Shown here: positions 11,067-64,000 of the stretch, piece by piece
Layout: each line of letters begins with the position of its first letter
Numbering within the stretch: the stretch's first letter is position 1
DNA from: Eledone cirrhosa
Taxonomy: Eukaryota
DNA length: 64,000 nucleotides
Assembly (NCBI GenBank): GCA_964016885.1
Contig: OZ024746.1
Location: forward strand, 95,728,001-95,792,000
Direction: 5' to 3'
Translations under genes and position numbers: made by a program
The notes under the pieces: model-generated
Told to the model about the DNA's origin: nothing
Databases searched by the model: none
What the model saw: the letters and a program-made list of their open reading frames with translations, nothing else

Positions 11067-11815
11067 ACATTTATATAGGCATGTTTGTATGTATGCATAT
11101 TTGTATGTATCCCTATTTGTGTGTATGTCTGTATGTGTATTTGGTGGAGCGAGAGACTCCAAGTCTTCGTTAAGTCATCTCTCTAGAATAAGGTCACTCA
11201 GATATAAAATCTGGGATTTCATTTGCATCCAACGATGTAGACCAGTTCTTTTGGGGTAAATACATTCAATGTTCAGAGAGTGGGATTGGCTTCATGCAAA
11301 TCCTTTTCTCACTTAAAAAAGCTTCAAGCACAGGCATCACTTGATATGTCACATTTTTTGTGATGCATGATATTGCTGGCCATAGGCAAGTCCCTAGCTG
11401 GACTAAAAAGCCACATCCGTGATGTATCAAGCAATGGCATTACTCGAAATTGAGTTGCAGCCATCATCATCATGTATGTATGTATGTGTGTATGTATGTA
11501 TGTATGCATGTATGTATATAAGTAAATGTCCAAATATCACCCTCCTCATTAATACTTTAGCATTTAAATTACTCTATATTTATTATTGTATTTTCACAGT
11601 AAAGGCTTTATCTTACATAATATCTCACATAATATCAAATCTATGAGATTTTCATATTATTTATCTTGAGAACAATACCTTAACATCAGTATGAGCGACC
11701 TGTTACAGCTAGTTTGAACAGAAAGAGATGAGAGAATTCTGGCCGGATATGACCGGTTTAAATGTTAAAGGGTTAAGCAAGCTTAGTGGCGTTGCCTATT
11801 TAGTTGCCAACAACC

Positions 11816-12660
11816 CGACCATGAGACAGGTTGTACTGGGTTACATGATACCAGTAGCACTCAAGAGTGACCCGACATATTGTTGGTTTAGTCACTGACG
11901 ATCCAACCATGTGACAGGTTGTACTGGGTTACATGTTACCAGTAGCACTCAAGAGTGACCCGACATATTGTTGGTTTAGTCACCGACAATCCGACCATGC
12001 GACAGGTTGTACTGGGTTACATGTTACCAGTAGCACTCGAGAGTGACCCGACATATTGTTGGTTTAGTCACTGACGATCCGACCATGCGACAGGTTGTAC
12101 TGGGTTACATGTTACCAGTAGCACTCGAGAGTGACCCGACATATTGTTGGTTTAGTCACTGACGATCCGACCATGCGACAGGTTGTACTGGGTTACATGT
12201 TACCAGTAGCACTCGAGAGTGACCCAACATATTGTTGGTTTAGTCACTGACGATCCGACCATGAGACAGGTTGTACTGGGTTACATGATACCAGTAGCAC
12301 TCGAGAGTGACCCGACATATTGTTGGTTTAGTCACTGACGATCCGACCATGCGACAGGTTGTACTGGGTTACATGTTACCAGTAGCACTCGAGAGTGACC
12401 CAACATATTGTTGGTTTAGTCACTGACGATCCGACCATGCGACAGGTTGTACTGGGTTACATGTTACCAGTAGCACTCGAGAGTGACCCAACATATTGTT
12501 GGTTTAGTCACTGACGATCCGACCATGCGACAGGTTGTACTGGGTTACATGTTACCAGTAGCACTCGAGAGTGACCCGACATATTGTTGGTTTAGTCACT
12601 GACGATCCGACCATGCGACAGGTTGTACTGGGTTACATGATACCAGTAGCACTCGAGAGA
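11816..12660. repeat. 88-bp tandem array, ~9.5 copies
   Basis: tgttggtttagtcactgacgatccgaccatgcgacaggttgtactgggttacatgttaccagtagcactcgagagtgacccgacatat; period 11881 to 11969. Confidence 0.95.
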
Positions 12661-15359: not shown

Positions 15360-15633
15360 TTACATCCACTTTTCCATGCTTGTATATATACGTAATATAT
15401 ATGCCGGTGGACAAGTTGATCTGGCACATAGGTTGACCCCTAAAATTCTGAGATGTAATTCAGTTTTAGCCCTATATTTGCTGGATAAGATGAACCCCCA
15501 AAATAAGGCAGTTGCAGGGGAAATAATTAACAAAATTAGTGGTATGCTAAAGGTTAAGACACTTCTGAAACACTTCAGTAGCAAATGAGTTCTAACTCAC
15601 TGAGTAAATCACCCTAACCTAACCTTAACAATC

Positions 15634-16376
15634 CTATGGTAACCTACGCTATGGTAACCTACCCTATGGTAACCTACCCTATGGTAACCTACCCTATGGT
15701 AACCTACTCTATGGTAACCTACCCTATGGTAACCTACCCTATGGTAACCTACTCTATGGTAACCTACCCTATGGTAACCTACCCTATGGTAACCTACCCT
15801 ACAGTAACCTACCCTATGGTAACCTACCCTACGGTAACCTACCCTATGGTAACCTACTCTATGGTAACCTACCCTATGGTAACCTACCCTATGGTAACCT
15901 ACCCTACAGTAACCTACCCTATGGAAACCTACCCTACGGTAACCTACCCTACAGTAACCTACCCTATGGTAACCTACCCTATGGTAACCTACCCTACAGT
16001 AACCTACCCTATGGTAACCTACCCTACGGTAACCTACCCTATGGTAACCTACCCTACGGTAACCTACCCTATGGTAACCTACCCTACAGTAACCTACCCT
16101 ATGGTAACCTACCCTATGGTAACCTACCCTATGGTAACCTACCCTATGGTAACCTACCCTACGGTAACCTACCCTATGGTAACCTACCCTATGGTAACCT
16201 ACTCTATGGTAACCTGCCCTATGGTAACCTACCCTATGGTAACCAACCCTATAGTAACCTACCCTATGGTAACCTACCCTATGGAAACCTACTCTATGGT
16301 AACCTGCCCTATGGTAACCTACCCTATGGTAACCAACCCTATAGTAACCTACCCTATGGTAACCGACCCTATGGTA
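15634..16376. repeat. 15-bp minisatellite (atggtaacctaccct), ~49 copies
   Basis: Seen directly; it explains the MVTYP ORF. Confidence 0.95.
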
Positions 16377-18217: not shown

Positions 18218-19010
18218 ACTTGGTACATGACGTATGCTTGCTGGCATATGTCTGTGTCACTGATTGGGCAGTTAGCCTGCACGCAGTATCTGTTGTGGTC
18301 TCTGGGTTGTTACCTGGATAGTTCATGTAGTGAAGGGCTAGAGTGGGCTAGTTGTAGATCTAGTCCCTCTCTTCGGATGGCTTTGCAGAAAGCTGTTGTT
18401 GTATCATCACTGAAGTGTGGCAGCTTCAGGAAGCAGGTGTTGATGGAGGCCATGTTTCAACTGCAGTATTTATTGTTTCTAACGCAGCTCATGGTGGATG
18501 TCAGGTATCCATTTAACTTCAGCACTTCCAAGAAGTGTGTGGTGTGTGTGCTTTGGATCCCTGTATTTTGGATATGTCTAAGTTCATTCCTTATGTATCT
18601 GGACTTGGCACCAAAGAAGAGGGCTGATTTATAATGGATGAACAGATCCCTGCTGGTGGCTTTTCTATAGAAGCTGGAGTGGATGCTGCCTTCTTCTGTT
18701 ATCCTGAGCTGGAAGTGAAGCTCGGAAAGGGATCCAGTGTCATTGGGGTGTTCCATGCTGAACCTTATGTAAACATCCATGCTGGAGAACATTGTGTATA
18801 TCCTGTCTGCCTCTTCATGGGATGGTGTTAGGATGAGTATGTCATCTCCATATTGGATGAAGAAGGCACAGGAGCAGCAGGTATTGAGGGCCTGATGTTC
18901 TAGCTGGTTCATATAAGTAATGGCCGGATAGGCTGGATCCCATGGGTAATCCTTTTGTTTGTTTGTATGTGTGGTGGTGGAAGGTGAAGTAGGTATCATC
19001 CACTGTGGGG
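18218..19010 (-). mobile_element. Penelope-like element reverse transcriptase fragment
   Basis: YGDDIL (YVDD-like), FSMEH, FYRKATSRDLFIHYKSA, typical of the PLE RT thumb region. Confidence 0.8.
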
Positions 19011-19064
19011 GTTAGGAGCTGGCATATGTCTGCTGGGTGTAACCCTGTTATGTAATTCTGTGGA

Positions 19065-37041: not shown

Positions 37042-37089
37042 ATCATTAAAACGTGGTTTTGACAATTTCAAGACATTAAACAATGACAG
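37042..37089 (+). CDS. Candidate upstream exon carrying the start codon (ATG ACA G, phase 1) of the giant gene
   Basis: catttttgcag acceptor at 37040-41, ATG at 37083, consensus donor CAG|GTAAGT. Splicing to 44572 gives MTGLKPNLVIILVVYSVTFKPLIIQA, which resembles a signal peptide. Confidence 0.55.
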
Positions 37090-39132: not shown

Positions 39133-40328
39133 TTAGCCAAAACCAGCTCTAGTTCAATGAAATAAAACCACCTATTTTAACCCTTTAGTTACAAATCCAG
39201 CCAAAACCAGCTCTGGTTCAATGCAATAAAACCACCTATTTTAACCCTTTAGTTACAAATCCAGCCAAAACCAGCTCTGGTTCAATGAAATAAAACCACC
39301 TATTTTAACCCTTTAGTTATAAATCCAGCCCAAACCAGCTCTGGTTCAATGAAATAAAACCACCTATTTTAACCCTTTAGTTACAAATCCAGCCAAAACC
39401 AGCTCTGGTTCAATGAAATAAAACCACCTATTTTAACCCTTTAGTTACAAATCCAGCCAAAACCAGCTCTGGTTCAATGTAATAAAACCACCTATTTTAA
39501 CCCTTTAGTTACAAATCCAGCCAAAACCAGCTCTGGTTCAATGCAATAAAACCACCTATTTTAACCCTTTAGTTACAAATCCAGCCAAAACCAGCTCTGG
39601 TTCAATGAAATAAAACCACCTATTTTAACCCTTTAGTTACAAATCCAGCCAAAACCAGCTCTGGTTCAATGTAATAAAACCACCTATTTTAACCCTTTAG
39701 TTACAAATCCAGCCAAAACCAGCTCTGGTTCAATGCAATAAAACCACCTATTTTAACCCTTTAGTTACAAATCCAGCCAAAACCAGCTCTGGTTCAATGA
39801 AATAAAACCACCTATTTTAACCCTTTAGTTATAAATCCAGCCCAAACCAGCTCTGGTTCAATGAAATAAAACCACCTATTTTAACCCTTTAGTTACAAAT
39901 CCAGCCAAAACCAGCTCTGGTTCAATGAAATAAAACCACCTATTTTAACCCTTTAGTTACAAATCCAGCCAAAACCAGCTCTGGTTCAATGTAATAAAAC
40001 CACCTATTTTAACCCTTTAGTTACAAATCCAGCCAAAACCAGCTCTGGTTCAATGTAATAAAACCACCTATTTTAACCCTTTAGTTACAAATCCAGCCAA
40101 AACCAGCTCTGGTTCAATGTAATAAAACCACCTATTTTAACCCTTTAGTTACAAATCCAGCCAAAACCAGCTCTGGTTCAATGAAATAAAACCACCTATT
40201 TTAACCCTTTAGTTACAAATCCAGCCAAAACCAGCTCTGGTTCAATGAAATAAAACCACCTATTTTAACCCTTTAGTTACAAATCCAGCCAAAACCAGCT
40301 CTGGTTCAATGAAATAAAACCACCCATT
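39133..40328. repeat. 64-bp satellite (~18 units) made of the left end of MITE family B
   Basis: Unit ttaaccctttagttacaaatccagccaaaaccagctctggttcaatgaaataaaaccacctatt; the last unit runs on into a full MITE ending at 40501. Confidence 0.95.
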
Positions 40329-41134
40329 TTAAAGGTTTCCAATTTAAATTAAAATCTTCGAACATAATTTTATTTAAGAACCTTACATTAAGTTACTATC
40401 TTAAAAATGAATTTAATAATTTTAGTAAACCCCTCAAAATTCTTCAATAATTAATTGAAATAGAGTGTATTTTATTAGGAATGTAGTCATGAAAGGGTTA
40501 ATGTTAACCCTTTAGTACCAACCTGGCCAAAACCTGTTCTGATTCTATGAAATAAAACAACCCATTTTAAAGGTTTCCAGTTTAATTAAAAATCTTCCAA
40601 CATAATTTTATATAAGAACCTTACTTTAAGTTACTATATTAGTAATGAAATTCTTCATTAATTAATTGAAATAGTGTATTTCATTAGAAATAGTGTATTT
40701 CATGAAAGGGTTAAAAAATGTGTAGTGAAGTTTGTAAATTTCATTTTATCAGTTTAAGTTACAGTTATGTTTTTTATTTTATGAATGTGATGCACCACAT
40801 TAGCAAAACATTACAGGATGTTAAGAAATAATACTACACATTTTCGCAACAATCTATTCATTAGTAAAGACATTGTAAACATTTGAATTGACAAACCCAT
40901 TGTTAAATATTTTCTGCCACATCATTATAGGATGTTAAGAGTTATTATAAAATAGTTACATTTAAAAAAAAATATTTGTAAGAAGCAAATAATTCCATTA
41001 ATGATTTGCTTTTATATAAAAAAAATATTAATTGCATTAAATAAATACAGTAGCATCATATTTTTTTTACACGTCCTTATAAATATTGTTTGCTTTCATG
41101 TGAAAAGCTTTTCTTTAATACAATTCAAACAACA

Positions 41135-44339: not shown

Positions 44340-44571
44340 CAACATGGACTCTCTCTCTCGCCATAGCCCCCACCTCTTTCTCACCCGACATAGCCCCCAC
44401 CTCTCTCTCTCAGCATAGCAAATAAAAATAAAAAAACATGGTATAAGGAAAGACAACAGAAGAGCTAAAAATATCGATTTTAATAACATCTATTTGAGAA
44501 AATAATAAAAATGTTGTTTTTTAAATTTTTTTTCTATGAGGCTATAACAGATATTTGTGTTTCTTTTTCAG

Positions 44572-47500
44572 GTCTGAAGCCAAATTTGGTGATTATCTTA
44601 GTAGTCTATTCTGTAACCTTCAAGCCATTAATAATCCAAGCAAGTAAAAACCAATATATTATTGAGTATTGGACTAAAAAAGCTGAAAAACAAATGGAAA
44701 TCATTACAAATATGCCAACACACTACAAACCCCTTTATGACATTAAACATATTAAGACAAATAAACTTTTAGATGAACAGAATTTACAGAAAAAGTTGAG
44801 AAGCATAATAGGCCCAAGAAAACTTAAGCTAACTACTAATTTCGAATTCCAAATTTTTTTTAATGAATCTGTGATTACATTTGAAATATTTAGTTATAAA
44901 CACAGATTTCATGAGACTCATATTGTATATATCAACCATTCTAGGGATTTAGTGACCATCAGACCAAATTTAACATTAATCAACAAAAATCACAAATTTT
45001 ATAAAAAAAGGAAAATTAAAGCGATTAAATTAAAGCCCATTGAAAAATTATATCATTATAATAGCTCAAAATTTATTCTTGATATCATACAAAGAAACCA
45101 TCTACATCTTAATAATTCTATAATAAGTAGCTTTTCTAATAGCACAAAAGTAAAGGTAGTTTATTTATTGGTAATTAAGGATAACTTAGGAGATCTCCTT
45201 TTAAATAATACATTTGAAAAACAGACCTTTAATATTTGTTTTCTTTCACATTATAATTTTAAAATCTGTGATAGATATAACCTTAAACAATTGGGAGGGA
45301 AACATTCAACTGTAAATACTAAAATATGGGTTCTTATAGAAAATGCTTCCATGCATATTTCAGAAATTGCATGGTACTTCCTTAAATATCAAGGGTTAAA
45401 CTGTTTTGTAAATTATGTTTATTTAGTCAATTACAATTTTCTATTTAAAAAGCCTAACAGTAAAACAATTCATTTTATAATTATTTGTAAAATTAACTCT
45501 CAAAATAGTACTTTTTCATCAACAGCATTTGATGATAGCGTTAAAGATGAAATAGTTTATCAAAATCTTAGTTCTTCATTGGGTTCCTCTGTGATAGTAA
45601 ACCATAATACAAGTGAAGCAGACCTCATTGGTGAGAAATCTGAAAAACAACTCCAAAATATTAACCCACTAATTAAAGTTTGTGTGTTAAAATCAAATAT
45701 AACAATTTTATATTTTAAAAGTCTTTACTCCAAACATAAAACAATTTCTCCTAGAATATTATCAATATTTTGCATTTCTATAACAAAAGCCCGAAGTAAC
45801 TCTTCAACCCCCAAAAATGTAAATTGTGAATCTAGTTTGAAGAATTTTCAAAGCAAAATCATTTATGAACCCAAAACTGCTGTTCCTCACCTACCCTACA
45901 TGCTTTCATCTAATTTATTTCATTTTGATATTCAAACCCAGTCTCTATTTTTTGTTAAGTCTACATCTTCCATGATTTTTACTCAATTAAATTTTGTTGA
46001 AACAATTACTTTGATTCCAAGCAACAGTCTATTTATAACAGAATCTGTCTTACAAATGCTCAACAACACAAATAATATAAAGTCATTTGACAAAAATATA
46101 ACACAAGCAAAAAATTACAAACTTTTAACTTCTAGAATCAAACGAGATATTAGTTTTGGAAATAGAAAAAGGCTACATTTAAAAAAGAATGATGATGATA
46201 TATCATATTTAAAGAAACGAATAAAAAGATTTAAAATCCAACCACCAAAAAAATTTACAAAACAAAGAATAATTTTAAACCAAAAATTATATGATGAAGC
46301 TGATACAGAGGAACTGGAAAATAAATGCTCACAAGAAAGAGAAAAGGAGGAGGAATCAGATGATAGGCGTAAAAATATATCTGAAATGTTTGATAAATTT
46401 AATTCAGACCAGAGAGAATATTTTGAAGAAAATAAGCAAAGAAAAAAAAAATTTTTTCCATGGAAAAGAAAAAAAATACAGAAATTTGTAAAGTCTAAGA
46501 AAAAAGTTTCTAGACTATTTGGCTCAAACAAAGTAAATAAAATAGAATTATCTTTACACAACACAGCAGTTACAAATGGGAATCAAGACAACCAATCAAT
46601 TGCAATTTCTCTGGTTTGTATTCATGAAGCCAATTTTATAACATATGGAAATAAGATACCAGTGACATTAAACTGTTCTTCTCCTGGTAAGGTTGCTCCC
46701 AAACCTGATGATATAATAGTTTATTTGTATTGCACCCCTAAAATAAATAGCAATGGTAGTAATGGAGATAAAGTTGATATAGCCTTAAATTGTATTCCTG
46801 GATTGAGTGCTACAACCAACGGCTCCCTCTTACCAGTGAATCTTCACTGTACAAGTGACCTTGATATGCCTTCTTATGAAGACTTTCTTCATATATCTCT
46901 AAATTGTTTACCTATATTAAATTATAACCATTCTGTAAGTGATAAAGCCACCCAACGAATGGTAACTAGTAAAACATTTGAACTTTTCATGACAGGAAAT
47001 AAACTAGGCATATCAAAAGAACACCAGAGAAAACTCTCTGTATCTCTTAAATGTATAACACGGCGAGGTTTTGCAATAGATGGGAAAACTATAGATGTTT
47101 ATGTACATTGTATACCAGGTTACATATCTAGAACTCCCCGTAAGAAACTTGTCATTACAAAATCAAAATTTTCAAGAAAACAAAGAAAGACGTGTCCATA
47201 TCGTAGACTAAAGAAGGGAAGGAGGTTATATATAAAAAGATATTCTTTGAAAGATAAAAGAAGAAAAGTTTTGTTGGTTGGTAAAACCAAGAAAAGGGGA
47301 TCACATTCAAGTGTAGGGCAGCCTAAAATGAAAAGTAGAAAACAGTCCATACAAAAAGGGACAAAACGAAAATATTTAAAAAAATATTTTCCTACTAAAC
47401 CTTGTAAAAAGTTTATGAATAGAATACCTACTGCTCCCAGACCTATTTCATCTACTACACTGAAAATGCTCAAAATATATCAAATTTTGTCTAAAAAAAC

Positions 47501-50500
47501 TGAATCATTCTCACCAGTGGCTACTGTTAATTTGACTAAGAGAAGAACAGATATAAATCTACAACCCACAACACTTTCTATTCCATTGACACATTTAATT
47601 AAAAAACAAAATTATAGTACAACAGAATTGATTCCTTCATTTAAAACATCACAAAATGTAATGAAACACTTTTTGAAATTTACACAAGCATATAAATCAA
47701 CTCCAGTTAGAAAATCATCTTATATGGTGACATCAAAAATTTCGTCAGTCTTTACAAATGTACCAATAGAAATTACTTCTAAATTTAGCTTGGATATTGT
47801 AGATGCCACAAATAAAACTCTAATAACAAGTGCAGGTACAAGATTATTTCATAATATCTCACATAAAGAAGGAACAACATTTTCTAATTTGTTTCTTAGA
47901 ATCCAATCTGAGTCCCTTCAATATAACCAAAGTAAAAGTATTCCTTTAAAAGGGTTGAGTTCCTTAGAAATAAAAACTTTTCTGTCAAAACTGATACCCT
48001 ACTCCACAACAACCATGAATTCATCATTTACATTTAAAATGCATTTATTAGGACAACTTCCGACATTTAGAAGTACTGAAAATACATCTAAAACACCGGA
48101 AGTATACCAAACTACACCTATCCAATGGAGATTTTCAAGGAAGCAAAACAAATCAGTAGACAATTTGTTTCAAAGTTTATCCTTTACACCGAATCAGTCA
48201 TCCATATCCAAAATATATTTGAAGCAAACTACGGAACAAAAAGCTGTTAGCAAACTAATAACATATGACATACTTTCAAAATCAAATAAGACAAAATTAT
48301 TTGGCAGAGAACATGGGGTGATAATAACATCCCAATATACATTCTCTGAAAAAATAAAAACACAAGCAAAATATTGGCTAATATCAAAATACTCATTAAG
48401 TACAAAATATGTTTATACATTTTTAACACCAAGCACCTTTTCTGATCAGATGACTACACCATTTACCAGAGGAAAATTATATAAAGTACAGTTTATACCA
48501 ACTGCATGGTCTACTAAGAAAAGTACACTCCAGCCTGTTTTTCTCAGCATAGATGGTACAAAGAAGCCAACAGATATTCCAGATCAACATAAACTGCAGT
48601 TTACTTTATCTGTAACGTTACAGAGTTTTGACAAAGCTTTCACTCCAAGAGATAAATTACTTACTTCTGCATCATCAAACATATCTTTGATTACAGTAAA
48701 GTTTGAAAGATCAACTTTAAAAGAACAGCTGATACAGATTACCAAAATTGATGATAAGGATGATGATGTTGATGATGACAAATCTGATAAAACTGATTTA
48801 AAATCTAAAACTATTCACGGAGACTCAAAAATGTTCTTAGCTTTGTCTGGGGTAGAATTTGACAAGAAACATTTAAGACAAGAAAGGAAGTTAATATTTC
48901 AAGTAACAGTATTTCCTGACTATACTCTACAAGAAGAAGAAATCGTAACCCCTGCCATGTTCCAGTCAACTGAAGAGACTTTTTACCATGAAGTCACTTT
49001 TATAAGTCAAACATATATGTATGGCAGAGAGCTGTATGAGGGAAAAGAAACAGATTCATTAATAGAACTGTCAGTCCCCTTAACTATTTTACAAGAGATG
49101 TCAATTATGCCCCCTAAAGGCAGAGATTACATTGACTCTGATGTTGATACAGAAGGGACCGAGTTAATCACCCAACAAATGATACTAAAACATGAAACTG
49201 AAGTGGAGGGTAAACATGTATTTGAAATTATGAAAATCTCAAGAGAGGGTAAAATAAAAATGGAAGAACAATCAAGTGATCCTTTCAGTTCCACAACAAT
49301 AACATTTGAGAAAACTTTGACTATGTTTACAAAGGATTTGTCAACTGGACCAATGGCACATATAGAGTCTGCAAGATTGACAGAGATTATCATTCCATAT
49401 AGAGATTTGACAGAAACAACCATTCCAAGAAATACTACAACAGAATTGTTGGGTGTAAAGGAATTACAAATCGATACTTTTACAAGAGTAACCCCAATAT
49501 TTAGAATTAGTGTGAGTGCTAGTACACTAAATATGACATGGGGTTTACAAGACAGTTCTAGAATGGTTGAACAAATTATAAGAAATTTGAGTAAAACGGA
49601 GACAATTCAAAAATATAATGTGACAGGATTATCAAGTCATGATTTAAGTTCAATATTTAGATTTATTACAACAAATAATGAATCCATGATAAAATTAATG
49701 ACTGAAAGAATTCATTCAGAGTTAACAACAGCAATGACACTGAAAACAGAAGTAGATGTAGGTCTGCAGAGAAGCATGATAGTGAAATATATAGATAAAG
49801 TGACTTCATTAGTTGTAAAATATGAAGATACTACATCGAGGCAGCAATTTTCCAAACCAGTACTACAAGAAATGTTTTTATTGAGCACAAGTGTTAGTCT
49901 GATTATTACTAAAACTCTAGGAGAAACTACAAGATATGATATCTTATCTTTGATGAAGACACCCTATCAGAAAACTAGAATTATAAAAACACAGTTGATT
50001 TCAGACGTTTTAACCAAAGAATTCTCCAGAAAAACAGATAATGGAAGTAAAACTACCAAAATTGCACTAGACAGAATACCACAAATAGACACAGAAGAAT
50101 TAGTTGTGACTAAAGAAGCTATTAAGGTTCTAGAAAAAGACACAGAGGGATTAGTTGTGACTAAAGAAGTTATTAGGGTTCCAAAAATAGACACAGAGGG
50201 ATTAGTAGTGACTGAGGAGGCTATTAGGGCTCCACAAATAGACACAGAGGCTATGAGGGTTCCACAAATAGACATAGAGGCTATGAGGGTTCCACAAATA
50301 GATACAGAGGGATTAGTAGTGACTGAGGAGGGTATTAGGGCTCCACAAATAGACCTAGACGGATTAGTTGTGACTGAGGAGGCTATTAGGGTTCCAGAAA
50401 TAGACACAGAGAGATTAGTAGTGACTGAGGAGGCTATTAGGGTTCCAGAAATAGACACAGAGAGATTAGTAGTGACTGAGGAGGCTATTAGGGTTCCAGA

Positions 50501-53500
50501 AATAGACACAGAGGCTATGAGGGTTCCAGAAATAGACATAGAGGGATTAGTTGTGACTGAGGAAGCTATTAGGGCTCCACAAATAGACATAGAGGAGATT
50601 AGGGTTCCACAAATAGACATAGAGGGATTAGTTGTGACTAAAGAAGTTATTAGGGTTCCAAAAATAGACACAGAGGGATTAGTAGTGACTGAGGAGGCTA
50701 CTAGGGCTCCACAAATAGATATAGAGGATATAAAGGTTCCACAAATAGACATAGAGAGATTAGTAGTGACTATTAGGATTCCAGAAATAGACACGGAGGG
50801 ATTAGTAGTGACTATTAGGGTTCCAGAAATAGACACAGAGGCTATTAGGGTTCCACAAATAGATGCAGCGGAATTAGTAGTGACTAAGGAGGGTATTAGA
50901 GTTCCAGAAATAGACATAGAGGGATTAGTAGTGACTGAGGAAGTTATTAGGGTTCCACAAATAGACATAGAGGGTATCAGGGTTGCACAAATAGACATAG
51001 AGGGATTAGTTGTGACTATTAGGGTTCCAGAAATAGACACACAAGGATTAGTTGTGACTAAAGAAGTTATTAGGGTTCGAAAAATAGACACAGAGGGATT
51101 AGTAGTGACTGAGGAGGCTACTAGGGCTCCACAAATAGACACAGAGGCTATGAGGGTTGCACAAATAGACATAGAGAGATTAGTAGTGACTATTAGGGTT
51201 CCAATAATAGAAACAGAGGAATTAGTTGTGACCAAGGATAGTATTAGCATTCAAAGACGAAGACAAATATCACATACTGTAAATGTTATAATTTCTATTC
51301 CGCAAGTACCTGAAGATAGATCAACCATTTCTCAAGATGTTGCTAGAGTTCTAGAAATATATATGAAAGGATCATCTGTTGCTAGAGATGTGACAATTTC
51401 ACAAAGACACACACAAGGATCAACAACTGATAGAGGCATTGTTGTTAGTAGAGAGACTGTGACAGTTGCACAAATATACACAGAGGGATCAGTTTCAAGT
51501 AGTTATGTCATTGTTGCTAAGGACGCCATTACAGTCTCACAAATACATATAACTCAACCAGTTTCTACTAGTTCTGTTGCTGTTGTTGCTAAGGACACCA
51601 TTACAGTTCCACACATACACATAGCTCAACCAGTTTCCACTAGTTCTGTTGCTGTTGTTGCTAAGGACACCATTACAGTTCCACACATACACATAGCTCA
51701 ACCAGTTTCCACTAGTTCTGTTGCTGTTGTTGCTAAGGACACCATTACAGTTCCACACATACACATAGCTCAACCAGTTTCTACTAGTTCTGTTGCTGTT
51801 GTTGCTAAGGACACCATTACAGTTCCACACATACACATAGCTCAACCAGTTTCCACTAGTTCTGTTGCTGTTGTTGCTAAGGACACCATTACAGTTCCAC
51901 ACATACACATAGCTCAACCAGTTTCTACTAGTTCTGTTGCTGTTGTTGCTAAGAACACCATTACAGTTCCACACATACACATAGCTCAACCAGTTTCTAC
52001 TAGTTCTGTTGCTGTTGTTGCTAAGGACACCATTACAGTTCCACATATACACATAGCTCAACCAGTTTCCACTAGTTCTGTTGCTGTTGTTGCTAAGGAC
52101 ACCATTACAGTTCCACATATACACATAGCTCAACCAGTTTCCACTAGTTCTGTTGCTGTTGTTGCTAAGGACACCATTACAGTTCCACAAATACACATAG
52201 CTCAACCAGTTTCCACTAGTTCTGTTGCTGTTGTTGCTAAGGACACCATTACAGTTCCACAAATACACATAGCTCAACCAGTTTCCACTAGTTCTGTTGC
52301 TGTTGTTGCTAAGGACACCATTACAGTTCCACAAATACACATAGCTCAACCAGTTTCCACTAGTTCTGTTGCTGTTGTTGCTAAGGACACCATTACAGTT
52401 CCACAAATACACATAGCTCAACCAGTTTCCACTAGTTCTGTTGCTGTTGTTGCTAAGGACACCATTACAGTTCCACACATACACATAGCTCAACCAGTTT
52501 CTACTAGTTCTGTTGCTGTTGTTGCTAAGGACACCATTACAGTTCCACATATACACATAGCTCAACCAGTTTCTACTAGTTCTGTTGCTGTTGTTGCTAA
52601 GGACACCATTACAGTTCCACATATACACATAGCTCAACCAGTTTCTACTAGTTCTGTTGCTGTTGTTGCTAAGGACACCATTACAGTTCCACAAATACAC
52701 ATAACTCAACCAGTTTCCACTAGTTCTGTTGCTGTTGTTGCTAAGGATGCCATTACAGTCCTACAAATACACATAGCTCAACCAGTTTCCACTAGTTCTG
52801 TTGCTGTTGTTGCTAAGGACACCATTACAGTTCCACAAATACACATAGCTCAACTAGTTTCCACTAGTTCTGTTGCTGTTGTTGCTAAGGACACCATTAC
52901 AGTTCCACAAATACACATAGCTCAACCAGTTTCTACTAGTTCTGTTGCTGTTGTTGCTAAGGACACCATTACAGTTCCACAAATACACATAGCTCAACCA
53001 GTTTCCACTAGTTCTGTTGCTGTTGTTGCTAAGGACGCCATTACAGTTCCACAAATACACATAGCTCAACCAGTTTCTACTAGTTCTGTTGCTGTTGTTG
53101 CTAAGGACGCCATTACAGTTCCACAAATACACATAGCTCAACCAGTTTCTACTAGTTCTGTTGCTGTTGTTGCTAGGGACACCATTACAGTTCCACACAT
53201 ACACATAGCTCAACCAGTTTCTACTAGTTCTGTTGCTGTTGTTGCTAGGGACACCATTACAGTTCCACATATACACATAGCTCAACCAGTTTCTACTAGT
53301 TCTGTTGCTGTTGTTGCTAGGGACACCATTACATTTCCACAAATACAAACAGATAGATTAACTGTTGCTAGGGAGGCCAACATTTCGCAACTACAAACAA
53401 AGGAGGGATCAGCTGCTGGTATTAGGGATGATATTACAACTACACAAATACACATAGATACATTTCACATTATTAAGGATGGTGTTGCTAGGGAGATTGT

Positions 53501-56500
53501 TACTAGGAATGGTGTTGCTAGGGAGATTGTTACTGGGGATGGCATTACTAGGGATAGTGTTGCTGGGGAGATTGTTACTGGGGATGGTGTTGCTAGGGAG
53601 ATTGTTACGGCTACACAAATACACACAAATAAAGTTCTTGTTGCTAGGGATATTGTTACTAGTGATACTGTTGCTAAGAAGATTGTTACAGCTACACAAG
53701 TACATCTTTCTACTAAAGGTTTTGTTATCTGGGATGGAGTTACATTTCAACCAATTGACACAAAAGGATCTACTGTTTTACCAAGTGATGTAGAGGGATC
53801 ACTTGTTACTATAGATGCTGTGACAGTTCCTCAAATTAGTCAAGATAAATTGGTTATTGGTAGGTTTACTCTTCAAATACCCCAGATAAAAATGTACACC
53901 TCATTTGTTACTCAGATATCTGTTGCCTTTAGACAAACTGATATAGATACTACATCTCTTACAACTAGGGATTCTGCCATTATTTCAGAAATAGTTAGTG
54001 TTGGATTACTTGATTCTAGATATACTGTGGGATTAATTGTTTTGGGAGATTCTGTTAGTGTTTCTCAAATTACTGTTTTACCAAGTTATACAGAAAGCTC
54101 AGTTGTTAGTATAAAGGCTGTGACAGTTCCACAAATTAGTCAAGATGAATTGTTTATTGGTAGGTTTACTGTTCAAATGCCCCAGGTAAACATGTCTACC
54201 TCATTGGTTACACAGGTAACTGTTATCTTTAGACAAACTGATATAGCTATTACTGAACCAGAAACAACTAAAAGTGAATCTCTAGTTTCTAAATATATTC
54301 TTTCAGAGACGCAGCTTTATGGAGCACTTCTTGTAACTAGGGATGATGGTGTTGTAACTAGGGATGGTGTTGTAACTAGGGATGATGGTGTTGTAACTAG
54401 GGATGTTGTTGTAACTAGGGATGATGGTGTTGTAACTAGGGATGATGGTGTTGTAACTAGGGATGTTGTTGTAACTAGGGATGATGGTGTTGTAACTAGG
54501 GATGATGGTGTTGTAACTAGGGATGGTGTTGTAACTAGGGATGTTGTTGTAACTAGGGATGATGGTGTTGTAACTAGAGATGTTGTTGTAACTAGGGATG
54601 GTGTTGTAATTAGGGATGGTGTTGTAACTAGGGATGTTCTTGTAACTAGGGATGTTCTTGTAACTAGGGATGGTGTTGTAACTAGGGATGTTCTTGTAAC
54701 TAGGGATGATGGTGTTGTAACTATGGATGTTGTTGTAACTAGGGATGATGGTGTTGTAACTAGGGATGTTGTTGTAACTAGGGATGTTGTTGTAACTAGG
54801 GATGATGGTGTTGTAACTAGGGATGTTGTTGTAACTAGGGATGATGGTGTTGTAACTAGGGATGGTGTTGTAACTAGGGATGTTGTTGTAACTAGGGATG
54901 ATGGTGTTGTAACTAGAGATGATGGTGTTGTAACTAGGGATGGTGTTGTAACTAGGGATGTTGTTGTAACTAGGGATGATGGTGTTGTAACTAGGGATGT
55001 TCTTGTAACTAGGGATGGTGTTGTAACTAGGGATGATGGTGTTGTAACTAGGGATGTTGTTGTAACTAGGGATGATGGTGTTGTAATTAGGGATGGTGTT
55101 GTAACTAGGGATGATGGTGTTGTAACTAGGGATGTTGTTGTAACTAGGGATGGTGTTGTAACTAGGGATGATGGTGTTGTAACTAGGGATGTTGTTGTAA
55201 CTAGGGATGATGGTGTTGTAATTAGGGATGGTGTTGTAACTAGGGATGTTCTTGTAACTAGGGATGGTGTTGTAACTAGGGATGATGGTGTTGTAACCAG
55301 GGATGTTCTTGTAACTAGGGATGATGGTGTTGTAACTATGGATGTTGTTGTAACTAGGGATGTTGTTGTAACTAGGGATGATGGTGTTGTAACTAGGGAT
55401 GTTGTTGTAACTAGGGATGTTGTTGTAACTAGGGATGGTGTTGTAACTAGGGATTATGGTGTTGTAATTAGGGATGGTGTTGTAACTAGGGATGTTCTTG
55501 TAACTAGGGATGGTGTTGTAACTAGGGATGATGGTGTTGTAATTAGGGATGGTGTTGTAACTAGGGATGTTCTTGTAACTAGGGATGGTGTTGTAACTAG
55601 GGATGATGGTGTTGTAACTAAGGATGTTGTTGTAACTAGGGATGGTGTTGTAACTAGGGATGATGGTGTTGTAACTAGGGATGATGGTGTTGTAACTAGG
55701 GATGTTGTAACTAAGGATGTTGCTGTTGTAAGTCAGGATGATGGTATTGTAACTAGGGGTGTTGGTGTTGTAACTAAGGACATTGTTGTTGTAACTAGGG
55801 ATGGTGTTGTAACTAGGGGTGTTGGTGTTGTAACTAGGGACATTGTTGTTGTAACTAGGGATCATGTTGTAACTAGGGGTGTTGGTGTTGTAACTAGGGA
55901 CATTGTTGTTGTAACTAGGGGTGTTACTAACGTTTCACAGAGAGTCTTTAGTGGATCAACTATAATTCAGGGCAATGTTACATCAGCAGAAGTTGACATA
56001 TCTCTTATAAGCAGGGTTTCTTATATCCCCTACACTAATAGGTTAGATTTTACTATGGATGTAGATGTACCACATATGAGAAGGGATAGAGTTAACATTA
56101 CCATTCCTTATATTGCCACAGAGAAATCATCTATTGGTAAATATATTTCTGTTCCTTGGTATAATATTACAACTATTAGTGACGATGGTGTAACAGTCCC
56201 TCAGATAGTTGAACATAGATCTGTTGTCACCTCTTTACATACTTTTTCAACACCCACAACAGAAAAAGAAAGTTGGAAGACATCTTTACTAGACCCAGTA
56301 GTTTTATACTCTACAATAGTTTTAACAACATCACTTACACTAGGAGATTTCTATACAAATACAAAACAAATTGATACAGATAAAAGTAAGCTGACCGTTA
56401 TACCAATTCTATTAACAAGTCCCAGTGAATTACTTGGTATAACTATTAGTCCAATGAGCTTATCGATAACAACAGAAAAATTTACAGAGACAAACACTGT

Positions 56501-59500
56501 TACTTCTCTAAATGTACTCACTGAAATTATTAGTAGCACTGAAACTGATGATGTATATATTTTAGCTGAGACAACAGAAATGACAATGGAGACCACTGAT
56601 CCTTTATATTCAATGTTAGAAATGTCTGACTATGAAAGTTTTCATAAAGAAAAGTTATCTGAACATTTTAAGCAAATGTCACAGTTAACTGACAGGGATA
56701 TGGAGATCTTAACACCTATGTCTTTAATGGCACCATGGTATCATTCTGCAGATCATCTTAGCTCAGTTTGGGATTCTAGCCAACAAAGATATATGACAAG
56801 CATTGGAATTTCTTCTATTCAAGAATATTTAGGAAAAACACCAGAAACCACAGAAATTTCAGAAGATTTCTCTACAAGAACGGAAAAATTAATACCCTAC
56901 ACTGATTTTATATCTAGTTTTAGGGTACCATCATTTTCTATGGATGTCACTGTAGAGAGTATAAAACCCCCAAAATTTGATGGTATTCGTGAAATAAAAT
57001 CTTACATGACAGATATTACTACATCTTCTACCATTGATATTGCCCATGGAAGATTACAAGGAAATAAAAGTAGATATAGTGAAGAATTAATTCATTTTAC
57101 ACATGCTTCACAAAATGTAAGTAAATGTTCTGAAAGGTTAACTCCTTCTATAAGCAACCTGGTGAATGCAAGCAGATTTACTGAGGGGTTAATTCCTGTT
57201 GTTTCTTCAAGAAGCAGTCAAAGATATGTTTTAATTCCTTCTTTGAGTTCAGAAATGTTAAACTTAACCAGAACTAAATACATTCCTTTAACTACTGAAA
57301 TGGAATACACATTAGACCCAACAGAGCTGTCTGAAGACCACGAAGTCGAGGGGACAACAGATGTAACATTTATATTGGAAAATACGCTACTGTTTTTACC
57401 ATTTGCAAGTCCACCAGTGCTAAATGAATTTATGAGTGAAACCCTTACCCAAGAAACTTCAACAGATGTAGGAGATACAAGTTCAATTCCAACAACTACA
57501 AACATTCATTTAGATAAAGAATTAGAAAGCACACAAATCCAAGCATTATGGAAATCTGACATTTTAAAAAAGACTTCTGATAAGTCAAAATATGATAAAG
57601 ATGATAAAATTATTTCAAGAATCATACACACTGAAAATCCATTTGAAATATATTTTCCACTCTTAAAGTTAGAAAGCCAAGAAACTATTTTAAAAAGTAA
57701 AACATCTTCAGAAGTTCTGCCCATGTTTCCATCAACACAGGCAAGTATATTGTATCAGGATTTGAAATATGAATTACAAACTGAAACAAATGTGTATGAC
57801 TTCTCAAGTAAATTTTATAAATACAGAACTGGTTTAACAATAAATCAGCTAACAGAAAAGCCATCTAGGGATATAATGTTATCAAAACCTGTTAAGTCAT
57901 TAGATGTAAGAACAGATGGTGTTACTAAAAGTCTGATTAAAAGTAAAATGAAAACAATATTGGATCACACAAGACCAACCAGAAGATATTTTAGGAAAAG
58001 AGATATAAGTGAAACTTTTTATCCATATCAAACAAGTACACCAGGCAGCTTTATTGATATTATAGATATTTATGATAATGTCATAGTGAAGAAATTAAAA
58101 GTTAGGGGTTATGTAACAGAAGATCATGGTGTTATAATCGAAAATGTTACGTTTGTTTATGTTAAAGCATCTAAAATGTCTACACACAAAGAACATATTT
58201 TAAACAGTTCTGTTTTAGATCTACAATTACATGAAAGCACATACAGAAAAATAAAGTTTGCTAAACATGATAGAAGTGAATTATTAAAGATATTTACAGA
58301 AATATCAATGATGCCAGTAAATATATCTAAAATTGTATTAGACTTTACACTATCAATGTCAACACCAAAATTAGCACAAATATTAAATAACTCTACTTTA
58401 GGGGTGAGCTATATTGAAACAAAGCAACTAATGCTAGTTTCCCACACACCCTTAATCCCAGTAATCACACCTGAACATCAAACAGAAGGATATTCAAAGG
58501 AAATGATATTACCTTCTTTGGTTACACAAGCAAGATTTACTAATATAACAAATGCTACTGCATCACAGAGTCAAACACGGGTTTCTGTTAAAGAAAGAAG
58601 AGAAGGAATGACATCCAAAGCATCAGTTTATAGGATAATAAAAACCAGTTCAGCAATAGAAACAAAGATAAAGAAATCTGCATTAGAAGTACCAATAGCA
58701 ACACAAGAACCAATGAATAGAACTGCCAGTCCTAAAATGAGCAGTGAAATTAATTTAAGCATTAGGACAAACATTTCTCATTTATCAACACAACAAACTA
58801 AAACAATCCAAGATAGAATAACATTTGATTTATTGGAAAAACTTCACACAACTTTATTTACTCTAGCTGTTATTTCAAACGATACATCAAAAGAGTATTT
58901 TATTATTACACCGGCTGGTAGTGACATGCAATCATTTATAGCTACAGCAGACACGATACTAGACCAAACATCTTTAGCTACAGCAGACACGATACCAGAC
59001 CAAACAACTATAGCTACACCAGATACAATACCAGGCCAAACATCTACAGCTATACCAGACACGATACCAGACCAAACATCTATAGCTACACCAGACACAA
59101 TACCAGGCCAAACATCTATAGCTATACCAGATACAATACCAGACCAAACATCTATAGCTATACCAGACACAATACCAGACCAAACATCTATAGCTATACC
59201 AGACACAATACCAGGCCAAACATCTTTAGCTATACCAGACACAATACCAGACCAAACATCTATAGCTACACCAGACACAATACCAGACCAAACATCTATA
59301 GCTGCAGCAGACACGATACCAGACCAAACATCTATAGCTACACCAGACACAATACCAGACCAAACATCTATAGCTGCAGCAGACACAATACCAGACCAAA
59401 CATCTATAGCTACACCAGACACAATACCAGGCCAAACATCTATAGCTGCAGCAGACACGATACCAGACCAAACATCTTTAGCTACAGCAGACACAATACC

Positions 59501-62500
59501 AGACCAAACATCTATAGCTACACCAGACACAATACCAGGCCAAACATCTATAGCTGCAGCAGACACGATACCAGACCAAACATCTTTAGCTACACCAGAC
59601 ACAATACCAGGCCAAACATCTATAGCTATACCAGACACAATACCAGGCCAAACATCTATAGCTACACCAGATACAATACCAGACCAAACATCTATAGCTA
59701 CACCAGACACAATACCAGGCCAAACATCTTTAGCTATACCAGACACAATACCAGACCAAACATCTATAGCTACAGCAGACACAATACCAGACCAAACATC
59801 TATAGCTACAGCAGACACAATACCAGACCAAACATCTATAGCTACACCAGACAAGATACCAGATCAAACATCTATAGCTACAGCAGACACAATACCAGAC
59901 CAAAGATCTATAGCTACACCAGGCAAGATACCAGATCAAACATCTTTAGCTACAGCAGACACAATACCAGATCAAACATCTGTAGCTATACCAGACACGA
60001 TACCAGACCAAAGATCTTTAGCTACAGTAGACACAATACCAGACCAAACATCTATAGCTACACCAGATACAATACCAGATCAAAAATCTATAGCTACAGC
60101 AGACACAATACCAGATCAAACATCTGTAGCTACACCAGACACGATACCAGACCAAACATCTTTAGCTACACTAGACACACTACCAGACCAAACATCTATA
60201 GCTACACCAGACATGATACCAGACCAAACATCTGTAGCTACACTAGACACAATACCAGACCAAACATCTATAGCTATACCAGACATAATACCAGATCAAA
60301 CATCTTTAGCTATACTAGACACAATACCAGACCAAACATCATTTGAAACGTTTCTTTTTAAAAAATCTTCAAGTGAAAGCAAAATATTCACAACTATGAA
60401 ACCTAAAATAAAGCAGGATCTGTTTCAAGTAAGTGTACAGAACACAACTATGTTACCCACTGCTCAAAACATATCACAAGTAACTGAATACATGATTAAA
60501 CAAGCCATAATAATAACTAATGCCACAACTAAATTAGTTGAAATATCAAGCATAGTATTCCCTACAATAGCTAGTATCACTACATCTGAAATAGTACATG
60601 TTAACAATATATCAGATATTATATTGTCTGTAGCTACAGTTACTGTAAAGCAGATGTATAATACAGCAACTGAAATATCAAAGAAACCTCTGGTTTTTCC
60701 TCATAGTTTAGACTATCTAGATTCCCCTTTAACTACAAGTACAACTACATTATTTAGAAATTTAAGTGTGTTCCAAACAAAAGATGAAAGTAGTTTAAAA
60801 CATTTTATTCAACTGAGTATTAGAGATCAGTTAAATTTACAGACAAAAGAAACAAGGAAAACATCAAGGAAAGCTCAAAGTGAAGCAACAGAACAATTGA
60901 CATCTGAAGTTCCCCTGAAAGTTAGTCATGTTTCCATGACAATGCCACCAACTGAAACAAGTGAGAAAATAAATACATCATTAATAAGTGCAACTGTACT
61001 ACCTTTAATGAAGGAAATAGATAAAACTAAAACTCAACGAACAATTTCAAAGAAAAGTACAATTCTGTTTGAGGCATTGCACTTTGATAGAGGTCATAAT
61101 ATTTCAACATTAGTTTTAGAAGAAGATGAAGACATATCTCACTCCACGTTATTTTATATCAGAGAAAACATCACTCTACCAAAACAACCGTTTATTGCTG
61201 TAGATGTTTTACTTACTAAAGAAACTGGAGACGAGCTGCCATATTACCAAACTGATAGTTACTGGGATATTTCCATACACCGTTCTTTAACAACTAAAGT
61301 ACCCAGTAAAGTCTCAACAAAGAGAGGAACACAAATACAAATAACATCACAGGATCTCTCAACACAAGCCTGGTTATTTAATGCAACAATATCTTTTCCC
61401 CATGAACTGAATATTACAACACCAAAAGTTCTAAAAATTACAACAATATCTGACAAAGCAATTCACTCTCAGGACAAACAAGTAACCAAAACAAAATTTC
61501 CAGTTATCCGAATAACATTTGTGACATCACATTACAGTAACTTTAGTGAAACAAAGTCTCCATTAATTCATCCAAACAAGACTATAATTGAAATGGCCAA
61601 ACCTAGTAAGGTAGAGGCCATCACAACATATTCAGGTATAAATAATATAACAAAGTCATTAATAAGAACTGAAATAGATGGTTATTTCCTGTCATCATCA
61701 ACATCTAAAACAATTCAGGATTCACAGCTAGTCAGTGCACCATTGATGGAAATCACAAAAGCTAAAACACCAGACATTTTAATAGCAAGCAACATAACTA
61801 ATTTATTAACTCATTTAACCAAACCTAAAACTGATGCGTTGTTAAAGGATAGTACAGAAATCAAACCAACATCCTCCATAACTATAACAGAGATATCATC
61901 AAATTTCATCCAGGATATATTGCTATACAGTAAAGGATCATATAAAATGATTTCATCACATAGACCAAGACATATTTATCAAACATCAAGTACAGTTAAT
62001 GAAACATTAATTCTAGTTTCAACTATACCAATGAAAATGTACATAAGAAAATCTCTAGGTTTCGCTCACAACAGAAGTTTGTCTTTCTATGTTTCAGAAT
62101 ATTTTACCTCAGAATCCAGCACAAAAGAATCCATATTAGAAAGTACAACTTTTGTATGGCATAAATCATTAATAACTACTTTGGGTTTAACTGATATATC
62201 AGTAAAACCTGAAAAATCAATAATATACATCAACACCACCATTTCCCCAATTATACTGACCTCTGTAATAAAACCATTTAGTGGTTGGTATGCCTTAGAA
62301 AGATCATTTGCTTCAAGATATAAATGGGAACAAACTTATAAGGCAGAGAAATCAACCCTTCATTTAAAGACCTTGAAATCCACTACAACTTCTTCATTAT
62401 TAAAACTAACTCTTATGAGTGTACCTAAAATTGTGGATGATTTTAATAGACAACTAAATTTATCTGATTTTAAAATCCAGATTTCAACACTGCCTTTTAC

Positions 62501-64000
62501 GTCAACACACACAAGACTCACTCTTAACACTGGTTATAGTACTGAACATTTTAATTTTACATTACTCCTGCACCCCTTAAAAACTAAAACTGGAGTAGAT
62601 CTTAAACATCTTTTCTCAAATCTTACGTCTATGACAAATTTAGTTAGTTTAGTTTACTCAAAGGTTTCAACTTTAAACTCGTCAATAGATTTTTGGCAGA
62701 AAAGCATTTCTATTGAGGTTACACCAAAACTACATGTTTCTTCATTAGTTTCATTGAAACATTATTTTGAGCAAGTAACACAAAGAGCAAAGATAATATC
62801 AAACACATCAGTGGTAATTGTTACAAATGGAACTGAGTCTGAACAAATGGATTCTGTATTAGAAACACAGGGTCTAATGAAAATACAGACAGTAACAGGA
62901 GTGACAAAACAACTAAAAAGAACAAGTTTCGCTGAAATGTCTAAATTAAAATTACATCTTTATACTACAAAATTAATGCACATTTCTCTTCATACATTTT
63001 CAGTTTCTCTTGCTCCTACTAAGTTATTTCTTATTGCTTCTTCTTCATCCAGTAGTCCTTCACTACCAACAAATATTTCTCTGTCTTCAACTGCTACTTC
63101 TACATATAAAGTTACATTTGAACAGAAATTTAATCAAACAGAGCCGACCATAAGATTACTAATAAATCAGTCAACTACTGACATCATATTTCATAATCAA
63201 AACACATCAACAACAGTGAAGCCATTAACAACTATGGAGCCAACTTACAGTGAATCCTATGATATAGTATCCTACTTCAGTAGAGTTAAATTAATCCCAT
63301 TCTTTTCTTTGTCATCAATAGGAGATATTATGTCAACAAATATGGTGTCAATTCAACAAAGTAATAAAACCGAAAGTAAATATTCAAAATCACATTTTAA
63401 ATTACATAATAAAACAACTACAGCTGTGGGATTTATTGAAACTATTACCAACTTTAGTGATAAAAAAAATGTTTCCGAAATTACTCCTATAACAACCATT
63501 CCAGTGAATATATCAACACAAACTTTGCTAACTAATGTAAGTGAATTTTCCATTCCATTCACAACTGATCTTAGTTTTCATTTCAGAACAATCTATCCTA
63601 CAACTATACTATCTTTTCATCAGATTACAAGTACAACTGGCCCACTGAATACAACAGTATCTATTCATTGGACAAAGGAATTAACACTCTTCCAAGAAAT
63701 ATCTATAGTCAGTCAGTCAGGTGTGATTTCTCCTCAAGAGGCGTCTCATCATTTTCTGTTTACTGTATCACCGTCACAAAATATATCAGAATTTACCATT
63801 CTAATGACTGGATCACCTTTTCTTAAAACATTTGACGATATTATGTTTACCCCAGCATCATTTTCGCAGATATCAGAAGGTACCAGCTTTCTAATGGGAC
63901 CATCTGTTGTTGAAACATCAAAAGATGTCCTATTTACTACAACCATACCACAGGTAGTTTCAGAAGGTACCAGCTATCTAATGGAACCATCTCTTGTTGC
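44572..64000 (+). CDS. Giant coding exon (at least 6,475 codons, open at the window end) of a probably secreted, repeat-rich, Thr/Ser/Val/Ile-rich protein
   Basis: Acceptor ttgtgtttctttttcag|gt at 44570-71. Frame with codons from 44574 reads (G)LKPNLVIILVVYSVTFKPLIIQASKNQY... I read it without stops to ~47.5 kb, and spot checks at 48, 50, 52, 54, 56, 59, 62 and 64 kb are in the same frame. The ORF track lists no closed ORF in this frame, as expected if there is no stop. Repeat units are multiples of 3. An in-frame ATG also lies at 44511 (last upstream stop 44484-86). Confidence 0.9.
50085..51245 (+). repeat. Coding tandem array 1: IDTEGLVVTEEAIRVPQ (51-nt unit with 30- and 42-nt variants)
   Basis: Recurrent atagacacagagggattagtagtgactgaggaggctattagggttccacaa; variant lengths keep the frame. 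Confidence 0.9.
51515..53340 (+). repeat. Coding tandem array 2: ~25 x 72 nt, AKDTITVP(Q/H)IHIAQPVSTSSVAVV
   Basis: Near-identical 72-nt units, from aaggacgccattacag at 51519 to 53319. Confidence 0.95.
54330..55925 (+). repeat. Coding tandem array 3: ~80 units of VVTRD(D)G / VVTRDV (18/21 nt)
   Basis: gttgtaactagggat(gat)ggt units; length variants are multiples of 3. Confidence 0.95.
58938..60340 (+). repeat. Coding tandem array 4: ~39 x 36 nt, TSIATPDTIPDQ (mucin-like PTS)
   Basis: acatctatagctacaccagacacaataccagaccaa units. Confidence 0.95.
63786..64000 (+). repeat. Start of coding array 5: 87-nt (29-aa) period, SEGTSFLMGPSVVETSKDVLFTTTIPQVV
   Basis: tcagaa recurs at 63786, 63873 and 63960; truncated by the window end. 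Confidence 0.65.

Follow-up and report, generated by a model that had tools for sequence, protein, structure and literature searches.

The 64,000-nt window analysed here (Eledone cirrhosa assembly GCA_964016885.1, contig OZ024746.1, positions 95,728,001 to 95,792,000, forward strand) ends in 19.4 kb of uninterrupted + strand frame (44,572..64,000) that runs on to 173,322. On balance, we favour the reading that this is a single 128,751-nt coding exon of an octopod MUC4-like gene, the product of which would be a membrane-anchored glycoprotein of ~43,900 residues in an epithelial coat, made by the mechanism proposed below. What is established comprises the stop-free frame, the in-phase GT-AG junctions that link it on paper with 16 further exons, the NIDO, VWD-GDPH, EGF-like, and transmembrane sequences, the orthologues of the tail and of parts of the exon, and a three-fold excess of N-glycosylation sequons. 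The constituent claims differ in strength; i.e., that the stretch is coding is close to certain, that it is part of a MUC4-like gene is very likely, and that the exon is used whole is reasonably probable. Past the window end, coordinates extend the same count along the contig, such that genome position equals 95,728,000 + x (G000:C6); the 200 kb of contig behind the window, with an N count of 0, were added to the analysis. The genome comprises 3.0 Gb in 1,796 contigs.

The + frame entered at 44,574 is free of stops for all 6,475 codons that lie within the window, where the two alternative + frames have 663 and 667, and remains open over 42,919 codons once extended into the following 200 kb. 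A first-pass annotation of the window had proposed this frame as part of a protein of at least 6,475 aa; the frame passed the in-frame-stop test, and the proposed size was 6.6-fold too low. The giant exon (44,572-173,322) has a length divisible by 3 and is of phase 1 at both ends (1-1). Its acceptor AG (44,570-44,571) ranks 2nd among 8,555 AG sites in the region, while its donor (AG/GTAAGA after 173,322, just before the stop of the frame) ranks 5th among 6,157 GT sites, as scored with matrices built from the gene's own downstream sites. An in-frame TAG lies 8 nt behind this donor, inside the next intron. Also as first described, the exon is poor in common repeats whereas the first 44 kb are filled with them: dinucleotide runs of at least 8 units number 0 in the giant exon, 18 in window positions 1-44,571, and 55 in the 90.7 kb behind (4.0 and 6.1 per 10 kb in the two flanks). 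Likewise, 46% of positions 1-44,500 match repeats in the other flanks (interspersed repeat), whereas the giant exon gives one weak blastn match (66%, 1.37 kb) against 285 kb of flanking DNA. Internal introns are not evident, the giant exon being free of the microsatellites and common repeats that fill its flanks.

Outside the tandem arrays, the giant exon contains 23,207 codons (69.6 kb) with no stop, where 1,778 would be expected from base composition and where the other + frames contain 2,166 and 2,367. N-X-S/T sequons hold 508 of the 657 non-array Asn residues (77%) vs 162 +/- 11 (~25%) in 200 local shuffles, with control patterns at 14-30%. When the exon is divided into 15 blocks of 3,000 aa, the first block stands at 38% and the remaining 14 lie between 65% and 100%; such an excess is expected for a protein passing through the endoplasmic reticulum (ER).

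Orthologous sequence for the interior came from a search with aa 3,790-4,780, in which a single protein among 8,000 scored candidates was recovered, i.e., P0008 (UniParc UPI00069542B6; 3,386 aa). This protein is colinear with giant-exon aa 4,014 to ~7,850 (56,613..64,000 and past the window, + strand), with 1,578 of 2,759 aligned residues identical (57%). The well-aligned parts differ at 1,103 residues, a divergence at which ~70 stops would be expected if neutral, and neither sequence contains one. The sequon excess and this stop-free orthology both point to the giant exon being translated. Weighing against use of the exon as one unit, P0008 skips ~1,540 aa of the giant exon and, as a predicted model, may hide breaks.

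The 3' end is likewise represented in other octopods. A search with the exon in AMOP position found two relatives among 104 candidates, namely the 'mucin-4-like' protein of Octopus bimaculoides and the 'mucin-like protein' of Argonauta hians, with one more named record in each species (XP_014785347.1 and XP_052824421.1, of 1,648 and 1,739 aa, from O. bimaculoides; GAB1598474.1 and GAB1609470.1, of 1,586 and 1,673 aa, from A. hians). Tail identity is 90% and 81% to the two O. bimaculoides records and 81% and 78% to the two A. hians records. Each of the four opens at a Met within Thr/Ser-rich sequence, aligns with no more than the terminal 400-2,300 aa of the giant exon, and continues into the NIDO exons across the junction predicted by our model; in Argonauta, the match takes in the transmembrane and cytoplasmic segments up to the final residue. 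One A. hians record is without the last EGF exons. These records agree with our model in the tail, which is orthologous and 78-90% identical, and in the terminal part of the giant exon, but amount to ~4% of the protein predicted here. Accordingly, the initial proposal of a giant extracellular mucin-like protein missed by annotation is upheld as to coding and mucin-like character, though not as to orphan status, as the tail is annotated in two octopods.

Given these data, it is highly improbable that misassembly accounts for the giant size or that the frame belongs to a non-coding repeat region. Such an explanation could draw on the share of tandem arrays in the giant exon (46%, in 55 clusters), on array copy numbers having a single assembly as their basis, and on the reach of the public DNA contigs, which were checked for 44,572-50,000 of the giant exon and come from three runs of one sample, possibly the assembly's own source and so not independent (introns are covered, identifying them as DNA). 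Nonetheless, the sequence contains no N, 69.6 kb of it is non-array and stop-free, colinear orthologous proteins exist at the interior and the 3' end, contigs from all three runs cover 44,347-50,000 without a gap, and the N-terminal Cys segment is single-copy. Moreover, among 242 internal matches between parts >5 kb apart, the longest 25 reach only 74-76% identity, such that the size of the giant exon is unlike the result of recent duplication. In one bin (48,677-49,343), contig depth is 507-623 vs 7-41 in the other exon bins checked, from which it follows that a short piece there (the Asp-rich run, perhaps) has further copies in the genome. Three variant sites are listed in the DNA contigs (2 missense, 1 silent).

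Behind the giant exon, 16 downstream exons (180,262-212,256, + strand), all bounded by AG/GT, keep the frame to a single stop and yield 43,872 aa together with the giant exon; the model including the start exon described below has 43,875 aa, a predicted mass of 4.83 MDa, and a coding sequence of 131,628 nt. The first-pass annotation recognised no known domain, whereas the gene ends in a MUC4-like tail. In order, it comprises (i) NIDO exons (180,262-184,850; PF06119 above cut-off in two exons), (ii) a Cys-rich exon in AMOP position (185,952-186,377), so placed by location, size, and Cys pattern, (iii) a VWD segment beginning with GDPH (188,691-192,651), for which PF00094 is above cut-off on both orthologues scanned and below cut-off on single exons here, with the GDPH motif at aa 43,272 of the 43,875-aa model, (iv) a linker and EGF-like repeats (193,763-206,695), with PF00008 above cut-off once in the Argonauta orthologue and matching Cys-rich exons here, and (v) a transmembrane helix (one strong hydrophobic 19-mer, hydropathy 3.25, next 2.06) followed by a basic run, a cytoplasmic tail of ~100 aa, and the stop (209,090-212,256). 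The protein had originally been taken as probably secreted; with this tail it is instead predicted to be membrane-anchored, secretion being available only via cleavage or an alternative end.

This order is that of human MUC4, which has a signal peptide (here only predicted), a huge central repeat region, NIDO, AMOP (here matched in position), VWD with GDPH, EGF-like repeats, a transmembrane helix, and a cytoplasmic tail (PMC5354666, PMC8660890). A large central repeat exon is present here as well, at 128,751 nt with 46% of it in the 55 array clusters, its inclusion as one exon being inferred; the longest human MUC4 repeat allele is 27,843 bp (PMC13345508). Relative to MUC4, the octopod gene has ~40 different arrays rather than one, its product is mostly not Pro/Thr/Ser-rich (PTS) and is rich in N-sequons and Ile/Val, and its AMOP domain is unconfirmed; the likeness is one of architecture.

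Several observations weigh against a MUC4-like assignment. AMOP (PF03782) has no Pfam match in the AMOP-position exon or in the orthologues scanned; hhalign of that exon against one AMOP match from the genome gives a probability of 0.7%, and phmmer gives weak matches (E 0.004-0.005) to 2 of 4 AMOP segments, in a five-sequence file including one wrong-strand control. The VWD cleavage motif reads GDSH, not GDPH, in both Argonauta records (P0003, P0007). Under a PTS rule of S+T of at least 40%, with Pro often over 5%, in 100-aa windows (PMC4948705), only 324 of 4,282 windows of the giant exon qualify, with 0 of 638 inside the window. The giant exon as a whole has 29% S+T, 5.8% Pro, and 27% Ile+Val+Leu+Phe; with so few PTS windows and this hydrophobic share, a classic O-glycan bottle brush over most of the chain is doubtful. 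We therefore class the protein as working like MUC4 and not as a strict PTS mucin.

Secreted gel-forming mucins have several VWD assemblies, a C-terminal cystine knot, and no transmembrane helix. Such an identity was rejected for the octopod protein, which has one VWD and a transmembrane helix, with no gel-forming-type Pfam match in the giant exon. Human MUC12 is alike in being a membrane mucin that owes its size to one exon, but differs in its SEA-type tail, which is not NIDO/VWD (PMC9080433). Among invertebrates, cnidarian mucin4-like proteins share NIDO-AMOP-VWD(-EGF), though some carry TSP1, CUB, ZP, or FN3 upstream, and the accessible text of these papers does not mention a giant exon (PMC4890752, PMC9080433). 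In E. cirrhosa, no upstream domain-coding exon fitting the mucin gene was found among the 128 scanned of 192 candidate frames. Other AMOP and NIDO genes occur in this genome (L024-L027 on C4, C2, and C7; L045 and L046 at C6:100.7 Mb and C7:6.3 Mb). No giant frame was present at two other NIDO loci (200 kb each, 400 kb total), where the longest open frame has 794 aa; this frame (G000:C6:100,631,296-100,633,677; L054) looks by eye like a retrotransposon polyprotein piece.

At the 5' end, a candidate start-codon exon of 48 nt (37,042..37,089, + strand; ATG at 37,083, phase-1 donor) was identified by splice ranking. Across the 95 kb from the upstream gene to the giant exon, its donor ranks 1st of 5,901 GT sites, its acceptor 43rd of 5,292 AG sites, and the pair 2nd of 70 exon-like pairs; of the two AG/GTAAGT sites in that interval, only this one has an in-frame ATG (ATG-ACA-G, phase 1). 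Joined to the giant exon, it likely completes a signal-like N-terminus of 26 residues, with a basic residue, a 12-aa hydrophobic core (44,586..44,621, + strand; hydropathy peak 3.1 in 9-aa windows), and a small residue at the likely cut; the prediction of a signal peptide depends on this start exon. A further, non-coding exon upstream is implied, for which no candidate was found. Weighing against this arrangement, an in-frame ATG at 44,511 would provide an alternative, unspliced start.

Whether the exon is spliced whole is the least secure of the component claims. In one alternative, all of the stretch codes for protein, yet transcripts would seldom if ever carry it in full, with internal splice and poly(A) sites giving rise to shorter isoforms (exitron-type) and no 4.8-MDa chain. 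This we consider unlikely, while giving it more weight than any other rival. Consistent with it, and thus against use of the exon as a unit, compared with 40 synonymous shuffles of the non-array part none of the relevant signals is depleted, i.e., strong cryptic donors (33 vs 43 +/- 7), strong cryptic acceptors (36 vs 35 +/- 5), and AATAAA (78 vs 73 +/- 6); in-phase internal donors at 164,373, 164,925, and 165,210 outscore the terminal one, and another strong internal donor lies at 60,428; and the orthologue model P0008 has its aforementioned skip. That skip may instead be a predicted intron over an assembly gap. Against the isoform alternative, no segment has collected stops or repeats, the sequon excess is seen in all 15 blocks, the terminal sites rank near the top of the AG and GT sites in the region, and one large repeat exon is used in other mucins (PMC13345508). 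Inclusion of the whole exon hence remains our preferred reading.

The ratio of nonsynonymous to synonymous proportions (pN/pS), pooled over 14 arrays, is ~1.3 (range 0.28-25, from non-independent counts), and purifying selection on array residues was not found in this set. Purifying selection, as initially suggested, would hold for keeping the frame open and the sequons in place, with the residues held only loosely in view of the array ratio and the 57% identity of the orthologue. In keeping with the repeat indels in multiples of 3 noted at the outset, the period is divisible by 3 in 54 of 55 clusters.

The architecture first described within the window, comprising five large arrays, RIKR sites, Cys pseudo-repeats, and a basic segment, is present (all + strand). 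Two RIKR furin-type motifs (46,134..46,229; aa 521-524 and 549-552) are predicted cleavage sites by motif. Cys pseudo-repeats with ~19-aa spacing (46,599..47,123) are single-copy by genome search, and are followed by the basic segment (47,121..47,528; 34% K+R by composition). Fold models of the pseudo-repeats (predicted local distance difference test score, pLDDT, 34) and of the AMOP-position exon (pLDDT 39) were too poor for structure search. By tandem-repeat analysis, array 1 (50,079..51,247) consists of 10/17-aa acidic units, array 2 (51,511..53,347) of 25.5 copies of 72 nt, and array 3 (54,331..55,920) of 18/39-nt Val/Thr/Arg/Asp units with no Pro. A multibasic KR-DIS motif (57,987..58,013), kept in P0008, is a further predicted convertase site. 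Array 4 (58,929..60,340; 36 nt x 39.2) is missing from the orthologue record, leaving a 457-aa gap in the alignment, and array 5 (87 nt x 22.4), of which 63,871..64,000 fall inside the window, extends to 65,816. Beyond the window, the giant exon has ~37 more arrays of >150 nt. In P0008, the 36-nt array is missing, as is most of the 87-nt array; this suggests that the exon grew by local amplification, although a collapsed assembly would give the same picture.

Many arrays are rich in Val/Ile/Thr/Asp with little Pro; others are sequon-dense, and one is a Pro-broken heptad. The latter, a 21-nt array at 137,220-138,666 (L011), corresponds to a ~480-aa heptad repeat with many coiled-coil Pfam matches and Pro in many units. 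Thr/Val/Asp arrays (140,028-144,733; 124,830-128,924; 54,331-55,920) give periodicity matches to beta-roll or beta-flower models. The first two of these, both with 45-nt units, are ~75% alike, which suggests an old internal duplication. Pfam returned 0 families for giant-exon aa 1-1,833, with matches in 7 of 12 pieces of the remainder; as evidence of homology these were rejected, being of low-complexity/periodicity type with mostly no stretch passing alone. For the N-terminus, no true relative emerged from the libraries searched. The query of aa 1-900 against 1.84 billion representatives matched one nematode repeat protein, which we discounted as an artefact of its repeats, and none of 1,529 candidates from a set of shorter proteins was related to aa 1-600. 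Protein atlas searches with aa 1-900 and with the segment in AMOP position of the Argonauta orthologue gave no usable match. A PDB sequence search with this orthologue returned Notch EGF matches only.

Such modules raise the alternative that the working product is a structural polyprotein, secreted for use in a cuticle, egg coat, cement, or gel and built of beta-rolls and coiled rods, in which the tail would serve only as an export tether or would be skipped via the TAG 8 nt past the donor. This we hold to be improbable, and more so than the isoform scheme. The furin-type motifs, one of them kept in the orthologue, are compatible with it, as are the in-frame TAG just inside the next intron, the many Pro-poor Val/Ile/Thr/Asp-rich arrays with periodicity matches that include beta-roll and coiled-coil Pfam models, and the presence of coral mucin4-like proteins in skeletal matrix (PMC4890752). 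Conversely, the tail is conserved at 78-90% across octopods (in Argonauta through the membrane-spanning and cytoplasmic parts to the end), the Pfam matches have the low-complexity character noted above, and Pro occurs in many units of the heptad array. The better description is probably that of a gene from the known MUC4-like family, with a giant exon that is extreme and unannotated, and with a product that is membrane-anchored rather than simply secreted.

For this membrane-anchored product, we propose the following mechanism. The 48-nt start exon and the first 23 codons of the giant exon would form a signal peptide, by which the chain would be threaded into the ER, to be N-glycosylated at up to ~860 sequons and O-glycosylated at some of its 12,599 Ser/Thr residues. 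Self-cleavage at GD/PH, as proposed for MUC4 (architecture and GDPH cleavage in PMC8660890, PMC5354666), would split the chain into an outer subunit of ~4.76 MDa and an anchored one of 602 aa. The resulting type I membrane glycoprotein would be displayed on the epithelial surface as a very thick protective coat, while convertases of the furin type may cut near aa 524, 552, and 4,476 and so release N-terminal pieces into the mucus. Extended mucin chains measure ~0.25 nm per residue. At that value, the surface filament would have an upper bound of ~10 micrometres, its real length probably being less given the low PTS share. The giant exon itself would owe its growth to tandem amplification, local and in frame, of short segments from an older Thr/Ser-rich spacer. 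A 'mucin-4-like' protein has been detected in Octopus vulgaris skin mucus (PMC11431876) and may be the orthologue, but other NIDO and AMOP genes are present in the E. cirrhosa genome.

In the surroundings, an SPMAP1-like (PF15075) two-exon match (L033:8739-9119 and L034:1789-2025, both - strand) lies ~51-68 kb upstream of the window and is transcribed away from the mucin gene, with a Pirin_C exon (+ strand, L035:646-810) further upstream. Satellites of non-coding appearance occur at 11,815-12,659 (88 nt x 9.6), 15,633-16,376 (15 nt x 49.6), and 39,135-40,332 (64 nt x 18.7, 98% identity). Reverse-transcriptase fragments resembling long interspersed nuclear elements are present at 18,460-19,011 (- strand) of the window, as well as at L030:8204-8833 (-) and L039:6965-9019 (+).

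The product is likely among the largest animal proteins, if spliced as predicted. A fish titin-like TrEMBL entry has near 45,000 aa. Bacterial predicted proteins reach 85,804 aa (bioRxiv 2023.11.21.568195), so with these entries the octopod mucin is not the longest predicted protein. PKZILLA-1 has 45,212 aa, 4.7 MDa, 17 exons, proteomic support, and a size ~25% above that of titin (bioRxiv 2024.01.29.577497); both of these proteins resemble the octopod mucin in size class only and are unrelated to it. Among human coding exons, the largest is that of MUC12, the longest predicted allele of which encodes 23,080 aa and is hence <70 kb (PMC13345508). Listings of open-access literature, which constitute weak evidence of absence, showed neither this exon nor any coding exon of greater length. 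We regard as evenly poised the full claim that this is the longest eukaryote protein-coding exon yet described (128.75 kb, spliced whole into a >131-kb mRNA), encoding one of the heaviest animal polypeptides (4.83 MDa unglycosylated) as a filament of up to several micrometres that is convertase-cut into distinct modules, with 96% missed by annotation in octopods.

If spliced whole, the exon would be nearly twice the longest human coding exon (MUC12, PMC13345508), and would test how a spliceosome defines a 129-kb exon in which cryptic splice and poly(A) sites occur by the dozen without depletion, as well as how the ribosome and ER handle a chain of 43,900 residues. Even were shorter isoforms the rule, 129 kb of real, unannotated coding sequence would remain. 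Ultimately, this gene has been hidden in plain sight, no more than its final 4% being present in public octopod models; it is a candidate for a main component of the cephalopod surface coat, and may preserve a record of mucin-exon growth by in-frame amplification.

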